From Eledone cirrhosa (Eukaryota): DNA of 64,000 bases. Positions 15,045 to 63,337 of this stretch are shown here, one piece after another; the stretch's first letter is position 1, and each line of letters starts with the position of its first letter. The DNA lies in contig OZ024742.1 in assembly GCA_964016885.1 (NCBI GenBank), forward strand, positions 170,500,001 through 170,564,000, given 5' to 3'. A model generated the notes under the pieces. The model made no database searches. It was not told the origin of the DNA and saw nothing but the letters and a program-made list of their open reading frames with translations. A program made the position numbers and the translations under genes.

Positions 15045-16060
15045 AATATTAAACAGAAGATACAAACGAAGTTGCAAGCCAGCAATGTTGATAATAATAA
15101 ACGGCTGGTAATATGGAGCAGTTGGAACCAACTAATTTTGATAACAATAACTATTTGGCCGCATCATCCGTGATTGTAATAAACATCTTCCACTGCTTAT
15201 TCTTCTCTTTGAATTTTATATGTTCTGCTTATATATTGGAAATGTTGACATTTTTTGAAATCTCTCATTGAAAATTGCACCATTGTTTTCTTCCACTTGA
15301 ATAGATTTTCTCGGCATTAAATTTAGTCCGGAAATCAGTCACTTGTTAGACTTACCGATAATAATTCTATAATCTGACAAAGAATTACTTAAAAGCAAAA
15401 AAATTAAAGAAATAACGACCCCCCCCCCCCCCCCCCCCCAAAAAAAAAACAACAAAAAAAAAACAACAACAACAACAACAACAACAACAACAACAACAAC
15501 AACAACAACAACAAAACAATAACAACAGAAGACCAACTTTTCATAAAGATGCAAGGTAAGAAATTTAATTAATTTAAAATCATTCTATACTTAATATCAT
15601 TGGTGTTTGGGGATATAAAACATAACTTTGCCTTTCATCCTTACAGGGTCGATAAAATAAAGTACCAGTAATGTACTGGGATAATTGCTGGCCTTGTGCC
15701 AAACATAGAAACAATTAATATATTAAAACGTTTTCATAAATATTTCATACAGAAAAAAACGGGATGGAAAGATACGTTGTTGCGAGGCGCGAACTCCTTA
15801 ACCAAACGGCTATGCCTGCACATATCACACACGCACACGCGCGCGCGCGTGTGTGTGTATATATATATATATATATATATATATATAATTGAATATAAAA
15901 GAAAAACGAACACAGATATATACATATATGTGTTCAAATCGCAAGGGACCAGATTCGCTAAGGTGAAAAGAATACTAACTATAGACAATAGGGTTTGCCA
16001 GACTCAATTTAAGAATAAATCAAGAAAATAAATACAAACCAGAATTGTGGTAGCTACCAA

Positions 16061-16140
16061 TCACCCAGACAGCTTTGGCTATGCTGTTTCGCAAAATTAA
16101 TTGTGAAGAGTAATACCAAATCTTGCTCATCAGTGGGTGA
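16061..16140 (-). ncRNA. Type I hammerhead ribozyme (family A)
   Basis: Reverse complement of the 16877-16956 motif with intact core. Confidence 0.85.
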
Positions 16141-16876
16141 AGAATTAGTATCCTGGACACTTCTAAGTATATTAAAAAACTGAATAGTGTGCGTATATAT
16201 AATAACGCACATGGCATCTGAACTTAGCGTGTCTCACAAACTCACACCACTAAAAATAGCAGCCAGGTTTACTCGGGATTTGAATTAGCTCAACAAATTA
16301 ACGGAGCCGAATATATCAAAGCTATATATTGAGTTAGAAACTCAAAATAGTCTCTTATAATAAAATAGCTCTAGGAAAGAGATTTTTCCGAGCCGTATAT
16401 TATAATTGAATATAAAAGATAAACGAACACAGATATATACATATATGTGTTCAAATCGCAAGGGACCAGATTCGCTAAGGTGAAAAGAATACTAACTATA
16501 GACAATAAGATTTGCCAGACTCAACTTAAGAATAAATCAAGAAAATAAATACAAACCGGAATTGGAACACATATATGTATATATCTGTATTCGTTTTTCT
16601 TTTATATTCAATTATAATATGCGGTTCGGAAAAATCTCTTTCCTAGAGCTATTTTATTATAAGAGACTATTTTGAGTTTCTAACTCAATATATAGCTTTG
16701 ATATATTCGGCTCCGTTAATTTGTTGAGCTAATTCAAATGTCGAGTAAACCTGACTGCTATTTTTAGTGATGTGAGTTTGTGAGACACGCTAATTTCATA
16801 TACCATGTGCGTTATTATATATACGCACACTATTCAGTTTTTTAATTTACTTAGAAGTGTCCAGGATACTAATTCT

Positions 16877-16956
16877 TCACCCACTGATGAGCAAGATTTG
16901 GTATTCCTCTTCACAATTAATTTTGCGAAACAGCATTACCAAAGCTGTCTGGGTGA
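16877..16956 (+). ncRNA. Type I hammerhead ribozyme (family A)
   Basis: tcaccca CTGATGA gcaagatt..aattttgc GAAA cagc attaccaaa gctg TC tgggtga: 7-bp stem I, canonical core, GUC cleavage triplet. Confidence 0.9.
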
Positions 16957-17214
16957 TTGGTAACTACCACAATTTCGGTTTGTATTTATTTTCTTGATTT
17001 ATTCTTAAATTGAATCTGGCAAACCCTATTGTCAATAGTTAGTATTCTTTTCCCCTTAGCGAATCTGGTCCCTTGCGATTTGAACACTTATATGTATATA
17101 TCTGTGTTCGTTTTTCTTTTATATTCAATTATAATATACGGCTCGGAAAAATCTCTTTCCTAGAGCTATTTTATTGTAAGAGACTATTTTGAGTTTCTAA
17201 CTCAATATATAGCT

Positions 17215-59922: not shown

Positions 59923-60876
59923 TGTATTTCGTTTCAGAACTTTTTCCGCGATTGTTTTGAAAAAAATTCCCTTCCTATAAAGTTTCACTCTTAGATTTTG
60001 TCTGACTGTCTGCCCCCCCCCCCCCTCTCTCGCTCTTTCTCTGTCTACACACACACACACACACATATATATATATACATACATACATACATATATATAT
60101 ATATATATATATATAGACACACACACACACACACACACACACACATATATATATATATATATATATATATATATATATATATATATATATATACATATAT
60201 ATACATATATATATATATATATAGACACACACATATATATACACACATGTATATATATATATATATATACACACATGTATATATATATATATATATATAT
60301 ATATAGACACACACATATATATACACACATGAATATATATATATATATATATATATATATATACATACACACACACACATATATATATATACATACATAT
60401 ATATATATATACATACATATATATACATACATATATATATATATACATACATATATATATATATATATATATATATATATATATACATACACACACACAC
60501 ATATATATATATACATACATATATATATATATACATACATATATATACATACATATATATATATATATATATATATATATATATATATATATATATATAT
60601 ATATATATATATATATACACACACATACATTCACACACGCACACAGGCAGCAATGTTTTGAAATTGAGAGTGAAGTATTGGTCATTCCATTGGTAGATCT
60701 ACTAGAGAGAGGGGGGTGGGGTGGGGGAGGAAGGAGGACATCATCCAACCACCGGCCTTTGTTTTCCTTCTCTTTTTCTTCTTCTTCTTCTCTTCTTTTA
60801 ACTCAAATCATTCTTTCGTCACTTTCTTAACTTGAAAGTTTCTTCGCAGAGTCGAAGAAACAGAAAAACTCATCAA

Positions 60877-61980
60877 CACCACCACCACCGCCACCACTCC
60901 ACCACTACCGCCACCACCACCAACAACACCATCACTACCACCACCGCCGCCACCACTCCACCACTACCGCCACCACCAACAACAACACCATCACTACCAC
61001 CACCACCACCACCACCACCACCACCGCCACCACTCCACCACTACCGCCACCACCACCAACAACAGCACCACCACCACCACCACCGCCGCCGCCACTCCAC
61101 CACTACCACCACCACCAACACCAACAACACCATCACTACCACCACCGCCGCCACCACTCCACCACTACCGCCACCACCACCAACAACACCATCACTACCA
61201 CCACCGCCGCCACCACTCCACCACTACCGCCACCACCACCAACAACACCATCACTACCACCACCACCACCACCACCACCACCGCCACCACTCCACCACTA
61301 CCGCCACCACCACCAACAACACCACCACCACCACCACCACTGCCACCACTCCACCACCACCACCACCACCAACAACAACACCACCACCACCACTGCCGCC
61401 ACCACTCCACCACTACCGCCACCACCACCACCAACACCATCACTACTACCACCACCACCACCACTCTACCATCATTTCCACTACAATCAATCAACATCAT
61501 CACTACCACCGCTACCAACACCAATCATCACCACTACGACCATCATCATAACCATTACAAATTACCAACATCACCAACATTACTAGTACCACTACCATCA
61601 CCACCACCACCACCACCACCACCACCACCACCACCAATAACAACAACAACAACATCAATAACAGCTTCTCTCTCCCTCCCACCACCACAACCACCACCAC
61701 CATCAATAACAACAACAACAACAACAACAACAACATCAATAACAGCTCCTCTTTCTCTCCCTCCCACCACCACAACCACCACCACCACCAATAACAACAA
61801 CAACAACAACAACAACATCAATAACAGCTCCTCTTTCTCTCCCTCCCACCACCACAACCACCACCACCACCACCAATAACAACAACAACAACAACAACAT
61901 CAATAACAGCTCCTCTTTCTCTCCCTCCCACCACCACCACCACCACCACCACCACCACCACCACCACCAACAACAACAAC
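60877..61980. repeat. (ACC/AAC)n low-complexity repeat
   Basis: Direct inspection. Confidence 0.9.
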
Positions 61981-63140
61981 GAAAACTTTAAATTGGAACT
62001 TTACTGTTTTCAGCTGTGATATATAGTATCGTATATTTTCAAAAAACTCCACAGAATCCCAAACTTTTAAACCGAATATAAACAGATCCTACCTTCTTTA
62101 GAACTTTAATTAGAAATACAACATCGACGATAGAAATTAAACCAAAATTTCAAGAAAATGCTAACAAAGACTGCAGTGTATTCCAGCTGGACAATTCTTT
62201 TATGTGGTATGTTAAAATATTTCTCTATTTGTTTTAAAATATGTAATTCTTCTTTTATTCTTTTACTGGTTTCAGTAGGTAGACTGTAACCAAGCTGTGG
62301 CGAAACTTCAAAGGGATTTAGTTGAGCATATATCGATCTCAGTACGTACATATATTATCGATCTCAGTACGTACATATATTATCAATCTCATTTTGTGAA
62401 ATTGTTAAGCTACGGGGTCTTATAGAAACAGTAAACGTGAAGATATATATAATATAGGTACCCACATATAAATAACACACACACACACACTCACACACAC
62501 ACATACACACACAGAGACACAGACACACACACATATATATAAAAATGAAAGGGTTCTACACACAATTTTCGTCTACCAAATTTTATTATCAAGACATCGG
62601 TCAAGCCGAAGATATGACAAAAGATATTTGCCCAAGATGCCAGAAGAGGGACTAAATCCGAAACCACGTGGTTGCGAAGTAAATTCCTTAACCACACAGT
62701 CATGCCTATATGTATATGTATATATATATATATATATATATATATATATATATATATATATATATATATATATATATATATATATATATATATATATATT
62801 ATATATATATATATATATATATATTCGTGTGTGTGTGCGTGTGTATGTGTGTATGTCTATATATATATATATATGTCAAAAAGGAAGTTATAAATTGTCA
62901 GAATTAATATATGTATGTGTGAATATATATATATATATATATATATATATATATATATATATATATATATATATGTATATATGAATGTATGTATAGTATA
63001 TTTGGCAATATACCGTATGTTTAATTAAAAACATTTAGAAGACCACACACTATACATACATACGTACGTACATACATACATACATATATATATATATATA
63101 TATATATATATATATATATATATATATATATATATATATA

Positions 63141-63337
63141 CGTTCTTCCGGGTTGAATCGGAGGTAACCACAGTAAGTAAGGTACTCAATACATAGCAGA
63201 GTATAAAAGTTTTAATATAGATGAGATTCTACAGGACTAGAACTGTTTCATTCATTAGAAATCATCAGGAATCTCCTGATGATTCCTGATGATTTCTAAT
63301 GAATGAAACAGTTCTAGTCCTGTAGAATCTCATCTAT
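63141..63337. mobile_element. HHR family F fold-back element (- 63223-63275, + 63281-63329)
   Basis: rc: gagattc CTGATGA tttc taat gaat GAAA cag ttctagtc ctg TA gaatctc. Confidence 0.85.

Follow-up and report, generated by a model that had tools for sequence, protein, structure and literature searches.

Inverted repeats of Penelope-like elements in the Eledone cirrhosa genome probably join two first-strand cDNAs near the 5' end of the RNA

In a stretch of 64,000 nucleotides (nt) from Eledone cirrhosa (NCBI GenBank assembly GCA_964016885.1, 3.0 Gb; contig OZ024742.1, positions 170,500,001 to 170,564,000; hereafter the window, numbered from its first letter), inverted repeats fall into at least eight families (A to H). 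The evidence supports these repeats as insertions of several Penelope-like families of the endonuclease-bearing (EN+) type into TA microsatellites. Analysis of their junctions across the assembly indicated that a head-to-head repeat is probably a single insertion, in which two first-strand complementary DNAs (cDNAs) are joined at the likely capped 5' end of the RNA. A preliminary description of the window had proposed that one nascent cDNA snaps back on helices of the hammerhead ribozyme carried by these elements and primes its own second strand, so that the ribozyme fold would shape the product.

Exact matches to the 3' anchors of the families numbered 37,208 (A), 9,066 (B), 26,942 (C), 2,374 (D), 3,932 (E), 78 (F), and 4,043 (G) genome-wide. 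Our sample comprised the first listed anchor matches on contig C1 together with the anchors in their flanks (351 occurrences from families A, B, C, D, E, and G), and 321 insertions were left after removal of duplicates. Family F (30 loci) was mapped and kept out of the pooled counts, and 30 family B loci found with a hinge-containing query were dropped, since that search was biased to one junction. Arms were mapped onto natural long copies, with position 0 as the first base of the ribozyme core.

At least 160 of the 321 sampled insertions abutted an inverted copy on their 5' side (head-to-head), a lower bound because partners more than ~95 nt from the junction or inside an open reading frame (ORF) escape detection. 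An inverted neighbour on the 3' side (tail-to-tail) was seen in 12 cases, always with a microsatellite between. The single polarity noted in the preliminary description extended to the whole genome, with 628 head-to-head fold-backs and 1 tail-to-tail fold-back at one 12-mer site of family A. Both the one-polarity rule and the self-priming idea are already in print: PMC3846280 gives head-to-head as the commonest arrangement of Penelope copies and proposes self-priming, and the inverted arrangement of the Penelope pseudo-long terminal repeat (pLTR) is also described in PMC8557442 and PMC4209133 (here and below, statements on cited papers refer to the sections covered). The palindromes were also present in raw reads, where opposite-strand joints recurred at the same places in three restriction site-associated DNA (RAD) runs with the same species label, showing at the level of families, rather than of the 12 individual loci in the window, that the structures are not assembly artefacts. 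A palindrome copied as a unit from a master element was considered and rejected, as hinges and spacers vary and the arms share copy-specific variants.

Each of the sampled families had two 3' ends, a proximal and a distal one, at +70/+155 in A, about +57/+130 in B, +57/+134 in C, +95/+185 in D, about +66/+132 in E, and +184/+308 in G. In the three RAD runs, depth climbed across the ribozyme, and more than 2,200 loose ends per run lay at the proximal 3' site. One arm ended at the proximal and the other at the distal site in 139 of the 160 pairs; the anchors of families B, C, and E force one distal arm, while that of family A does not, and family A gave this combination in 29 of 30 classifiable pairs. 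The two arms overlapped in 126 of the 139 proximal/distal pairs. A snap-back copy must lie within the arm that bears the tail, and 69 of the 139 pairs were incompatible with this, 56 because the tail-less arm reached further 5' and 13 because the arms did not overlap. Among the latter, the non-overlap at locus L266 is uncertain, as the apparent family A stop at ~+105 is imprecise (an indel relative to the reference) and the true ends are probably +88 to +105. Minority variants were common to both arms more often than in shuffled pairs (3.5% vs 0.8% in family B, 3.3% vs 0.9% in family C), suggesting one RNA or one source locus for both arms in these families. By alignment gap, the 160 joins comprised 76 with microhomology, 17 blunt joins, and 67 with inserts; a ribozyme helix or palindromic loop served as the microhomology in ~8 of the 160, judged by eye. 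Short templated inserts at the hinges at window positions 23245–23247 and 63276–63283 would fit a short episode of fold-back synthesis preceding the final join.

Arm ends were concentrated near the ribozyme, as the preliminary description had suspected. Their rate was 3.46 per 100 nt in a 16-nt hotspot window per family (103 events), compared to 0.40 upstream (54 events) and 0.71 downstream (56 events), and family A had 628 fold-backs at the hotspot vs 8 in a window 28 nt upstream. The hotspot lay at the 5' edge of the ribozyme in families A, B, C, and G and was looser in E; either arm ended within 12 nt of the core in 19/32 (A), 42/50 (B), 38/46 (C), and 4/5 (G) cases. However, 83 family D fold-backs hinged 64 nt upstream of an intact core vs 2 at the ribozyme, indicating that the hotspot tracks something other than the ribozyme. 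Arm ends at the cleavage site of the ribozyme were few (a single clear case in family B and one raw-read joint), and this candidate was rejected.

The state of the core also varied among families. A putative type I hammerhead with CUGANGA and GAAA core motifs was found in families B, D, E, F, and H. The family A core is altered at position 4, where the native core at 23250 has A (as have the copies at 19227 and L087), and the second half of the family G core is changed. Natural long copies of family C have a degenerate core, with neither CUGANGA nor a canonical stem II. Stem I pairing was confirmed for families A and B. The hammerhead family was absent among the 150 listed of 291 Rfam matches, which were microRNA-type models matching microsatellites or hairpins. 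With a hotspot in family C despite its degenerate core and the displaced hinge of family D, the ribozyme fold was not supported as the cause of the hotspot. Family C had ~27,000 anchor matches; its ribozyme is either a new variant or a dead one whose loss of activity does not keep the family from spreading.

An extra G marked the hinge. Bases were counted by hand among the first 100 matches listed per position. In family A, the base directly before the start was non-native in 3,229 of 23,961 copies (G in 61/100 listed), compared to 958 one base up (G 19/100) and 1,194 one base down (G 22/100). Family B had 2,284 non-native bases before the start (G 76/100) vs 1,105 one base up (G 8/100). The totals before the start were 3,903 in family C (G 88, A 12 among the matches listed) and 633 in family D (G 39, A 7, T 54 among those listed). 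G-bearing copies were truncated exactly at the start, with unrelated sequence upstream. After point variants and bases explainable by the partner arm were excluded, G made up 14/18 in A, 11/16 in B, and 6/15 in D against an expected 17–20% (p about 2e-7, 8e-6, and 0.03, respectively). Among the first 50 junctions listed, the extra G was on both arms in 12 and on one arm in 13.

In families A–D, initiator-like motifs stand at the putative starts, which relative to the core lie at −5 (A), −6/−5 (B), −4 (C), and −64 (D). The fixed 5' end is thus a putative capped transcription start: if the extra G is the reverse-transcribed cap, the pile-up of ends would mark transcription starting at an initiator-like motif of the pLTR. 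For L1, an untemplated 5' G has been taken as a possible copy of the cap (PMC9341517), and Penelope carries an internal promoter with an initiator (PMC2377424).

Taken together, these data suggest the following course of insertion. At a TA microsatellite target, the two cut strands would prime reverse transcription at the proximal and the distal site. A dimeric reverse transcriptase (RT)/endonuclease may prime both strands on one RNA, with the second RT displacing the first cDNA; alternatively, the strands may be primed on two RNAs from one source. The RNA would begin at a cap right before the ribozyme (in family D, 64 nt before it), and both cDNAs would run toward the cap, or one would stop early. 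Short microhomology, the addition of a few bases, or a jump between templates would then link their 3' ends, and the gaps would be filled. Priming in the 5' pLTR copy of the RNA would give the abundant arms of 60–200 nt, and the presence of the uncleaved ribozyme at the hinge in most families would reflect only its place at the extreme 5' end of the RNA. The Penelope-like protein of the element PAc cuts and extends both strands in vitro, uses two adjacent internal RT starts and an uncleaved RNA template, and is predicted to be dimeric (PMC11167929). A stricter version may well apply, and we propose it tentatively: double priming would be obligate, with a dimer priming each target strand at its own programmed site, both sites close to the capped 5' end of a single RNA, and yielding strong-stop-like cDNAs that each prime the second strand of the other. 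Neither a fixed hinge with an extra G nor a model with two first strands was found in the literature searched, which consisted of main texts and left subscription papers mostly outside.

Several observations weigh against two first strands joined at a capped start. Seventy of the 139 proximal/distal pairs are also compatible with snap-back, and the arms in families A, D, and E have little shared-variant signal. The 16-nt windows behind the rate of 3.46 were picked after the data had been seen; family F has no sharp hotspot, arm ends scatter over 10–30 nt in C and E, and those of B are divided between −6 and −5 (2,549 at −5, G 44/100 listed). Half of the listed junctions (25/50) have no extra G on either arm, and in the unbiased sample the extra-G test is weak (8/31 vs 26/187, p = 0.11). 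Moreover, the predicted fold places the −64 site of family D at the 5' foot of a stem, and in A and B an RNA start and the ribozyme are not separated as causes, because the start is the first base of stem I.

Snap-back of a single nascent cDNA on ribozyme-derived helices, with self-priming of the second strand and the fold setting the hinge, could explain why hinges gather at the ribozyme 5' edge in A, B, C, and G, why both arms share variants, and why the few joins judged by eye use a ribozyme helix or loop; it is a described class of R2 junctions (PMC11204384) and has been proposed for Penelope palindromes (PMC3846280). We nevertheless consider it very improbable as the general explanation, since half of the 139 proximal/distal pairs are not a template with a contained copy (13 lacking any overlap, 56 more having the tail-less arm further 5'), the extra G is found on both arms at 12 of 50 junctions, the short arm stops at a fixed site instead of scattered points, family D hinges away from its intact core (83 vs 2), and family C has no canonical core. 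The snap-back idea of the preliminary description thus survives for a minor route, to which the ~8 joins and the inserts at 23245 and 63277 point, and not for the main one. An unlikely variant keeps two joined cDNAs and attributes the stop to RNA structure or a bound protein, such as a ribozyme dimer paired in trans, and the G to terminal-transferase addition. According to PMC4209133, Penelope ribozymes probably work as dimers; in A and B the stop is at the first base of stem I, and in D it is at the foot of the predicted stem. Many copies also pass through the site (20,732 in A), but such copies should arise anyway when priming takes place in the 3' copy of the pLTR. An RT, which travels 3' to 5' along its template, would be expected to halt where it enters a helix and not once the last base has been copied, and the G excess is limited to one position in A. 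The initiator-like motifs at the site in A–D likewise speak for a start rather than a block.

We give very little credence to a splice acceptor at the boundary, in cis or in trans, with the extra G as the final base of a short exon or leader lying upstream. An intron of D. virilis stops at the 5' end of helix I (PMC4209133), families A, B, and C have a pyrimidine tract and AG at the boundary, and some pLTR copies are spliced (L089, L211). However, no shared exon precedes the G, where copies have heterogeneous flank or the partner arm instead, family D has the G without AG at the boundary, and the observed spliced copies use an acceptor ~100 nt upstream. Post-insertion rearrangement, back-to-back independent insertion, or misassembly is similarly far-fetched. 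Elements do gather in TA repeats, where independent neighbours exist (the 12 tail-to-tail cases), and a small spacer can invert once inserted, making it harder to tell which arm extends further. Yet the arms abut without a microsatellite, combine proximal and distal ends in 29 of 30 family A pairs, keep a single polarity (628 vs 1), and are joined at the same places in the raw reads of three samples, and spacer flipping cannot yield non-overlapping pairs.

Compared to known systems, the two independently primed cDNAs, one per target end, resemble L1 twin priming, a likeness that is indirect and drawn from the non-overlapping pairs and double-G junctions. In twin priming as reportedly set out by Ostertag and Kazazian in 2001, two target ends prime two cDNAs whose 5' ends meet with short microhomology; the second primer is said to invade a variable internal microhomology, and the segments are usually non-overlapping. 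Here, by contrast, the sites are fixed by the element and lie 60–125 nt apart, and mostly the same stretch is copied to the same end, giving a palindrome. Published EN+ Penelope elements (PMC8557442, PMC3846280) likewise have a 5'-truncated inverted copy at the 5' end, usually head-to-head, with a one-sided tail, TA-microsatellite targets, and a ribozyme and an initiator-like motif in the pLTR. Those papers explain the palindromes by self-priming, possibly with an antisense template, and the tail by endonuclease resolution, while our data point to a pair of first strands, both templated by sense RNA, and to a fixed hinge with an extra G. Tails measure 60–125 nt here vs 30–40 bp there. The in vitro target-primed reverse transcription of PAc, a Poseidon element (PMC11167929), agrees in the two adjacent internal RT starts that bound the tail and in the cutting and extension of both strands. 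PAc belongs to another clade and its evidence is biochemical, while ours is genomic, and the sections covered of that paper leave inverted copies and hinge positions unexplained. R2 snap-back (PMC11204384) also leaves an antisense element copy at the 5' junction, but there the cDNA itself is copied and the inverted part lies within the first strand, which is not so in 69 of our 139 pairs. Non-LTR retrozymes (10.64898/2026.07.22.740005) share short type I hammerhead repeats related to pLTRs; they form direct tandem arrays, whereas the copies here are mostly dispersed solo pLTR fragments, those of A, B, and E partly still attached to an ORF.

In the window, inverted repeats were present at all 12 sites named in the preliminary description, and in all of them the left arm was minus and the right arm plus, by the strand of the ribozyme or ORF. 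Nine of the 12 were tight fold-backs. The repeats and the adjoining family A segments are as follows (unstranded where both arms are included).

15888–16560, minus strand: family H left arm and spacer, ribozyme core 16133 on the minus strand
16561–17217, plus strand: family H right arm, 517-bp unit, core 16884
17218–18315, plus strand: family A 5'-truncated ORF with RT C-terminus, CxCX5C linker, and GIY-YIG-type endonuclease, from its translation compared with the traits in PMC8557442
18316–19296, plus strand: family A pLTR, putative RNA start 19222, variant hammerhead core 19227, proximal 3' end ~19296 running into a TA repeat (hand-counted)
20317–21828, minus strand: family A left arm, beginning at the distal 3' end, with an internal deletion, its 5' reach into the ORF exceeding that of the right arm by ~900 nt
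21829–22433, plus strand: family A right arm, proximal 3' end
22866–23062, unstranded: family C tight palindrome, axis 23002.5, 60-bp arms, spacer 0, left arm distal, right proximal
23173–23404, unstranded: family A tight palindrome, axis 23246, 72-bp arms, 3-nt spacer, left arm proximal, right with tail (distal), native core 23250
25500–25981, unstranded: family G tight palindrome, axis 25803, arms of more than 160 bp, left arm distal, right proximal, start coordinate approximate
26172–26373, unstranded: family C tight palindrome, axis 26311.5, extra G 26313, putative RNA start 26314 (hand-counted)
26432–26624, unstranded: family B tight palindrome, axis 26494.5, 61-bp arms, 4-nt spacer, core 26497, left arm proximal, right distal
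29907–30089, unstranded: family E tight palindrome, hinge 29958.5, inner palindrome of 14 bp, outer arms 29907–29942/29991–30026, left arm proximal with a deletion, right distal
31119–31495, unstranded: single-ribozyme inverted repeat, ribozyme 31310 on the plus strand, in the spacer
31603–31993, unstranded: family D tight palindrome, axis 31850, 146-bp arms, 5-nt spacer, left arm to putative RNA start 31852 and extra-G complement 31853 (hand-counted), the putative start being ~60 nt 5' of core 31912
42024–42784, unstranded: family F tight inverted repeat, axis 42404, 360-bp arms, 41-nt spacer, cores 42215 minus and 42593 plus
63141–63339, unstranded: family B tight palindrome, axis 63277, 59-bp arms, 7-nt spacer, left arm distal, to putative start 63274 and extra-G complement 63275 (hand-counted)

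Closer mapping changed several hinge positions. The repeat at 16563 is real, and the supposed centre is its junction, the axis lying at 16508.5 with a 104-nt spacer, 323 nt 5' of the core. The repeat at 21830 is not tightly hinged (564-bp arms, 912-nt spacer, junction inside the ORF), and that at 31300 has no ribozyme in its arms, the only one being in the spacer. A hinge just 5' of the core was borne out at 26495, 63277, and 29958, and also at 23245, where the junction itself produces the seemingly canonical core at 23240 and the native core is at 23250. The hinges that had been placed within stem II are elsewhere: 3–4 nt 5' of a degenerate core at 23002 and 26311, in a family without a canonical stem II, and at core +1 to +3 at 25800. 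Other structures in the window were an older family B-like fold-back at 10587–10683 with the same polarity, hinged via a 3-nt match between core and stem III, and three microsatellite palindromes (28629–28801, 63428–63645, and 7697–7788) that had no recognisable ribozyme and were not orientable.

The Penelope-like origin assumed in the preliminary description was supported by ORF motifs, a pLTR with a hammerhead, and TA targets. Read by eye in translation, the family A ORF, whose N-terminus falls outside the window, has the CxCX5C linker, no CCHH inside GIY-YIG, and CxxC and CxH near its end, all given as Hydra-clade traits in PMC8557442. A Pfam search of this ORF (17218–18315) gave no match, and the endonuclease call is based on motifs. 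The family B ORF (copy L051) begins 175 nt downstream of the ribozyme core and has DKT, the Hydra-clade replacement for DKG, with RWR where the Hydra clade has RWK. By motif reading rather than a tree, the two ORFs examined (A and B) thus appear to carry Hydra-clade motifs, and a pLTR with a hammerhead inserted into TA repeats, a Hydra-type feature, was found as well. The family E pLTR lies after an endonuclease end similar to that of family A; no ORF was seen for families C, D, F, G, and H. Because the pLTRs of A, B, and E adjoin ORFs, most short copies are best seen as 5'-truncated solo pLTRs in TA repeats.

Two spliced copies of the family A pLTR (L089 and L211) joined a donor-like site at the pLTR start to an acceptor ~104 nt before the core, with donors near window positions 18397 and 18430. 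They imply retrotransposition of spliced RNA and a second upstream RNA start or read-through. The family B motif was strand-biased genome-wide (5,434 vs 2,544), which suggests a large tandem array somewhere. Direct repeats with hammerheads were also found in the window: a retrozyme-like array of three ~530-bp tandem units at 51954–53453 (cores 52269, 52799, and 53325), and two identical 249-bp copies, 340 bp apart, at 19681–20269 (minus-strand cores 19866 and 20206). A ~185-bp dispersed repeat was present in both orientations (4454–4637, 10392–10579, 14863–15052, 33355–33548, 34652–34828, and 36478–36660), and related sequence sits right before the ribozyme in family G copies L214, L218, L219, and L227.

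The origin of tandem and inverted Penelope structures was named an open task in PMC8557442. Our junction statistics favour two first strands over the published self-priming, provide two RT starts and one putative RNA start per family, and tie the in vitro result of PMC11167929 to genomic structure. The ribozyme is usually copied intact from the RNA start, which speaks against cleaved RNA as the usual template. With inversion in about half of the sampled insertions, and 2,000 to 37,000 anchors per family, these insertions would be a major source of short palindromes in the genome. If true, obligate double priming would account in one mechanism for the inversion of the pLTR, the tail at only one end, and palindromes in the tens of thousands, and the cap-derived G could then be used to read promoters from genome sequence.

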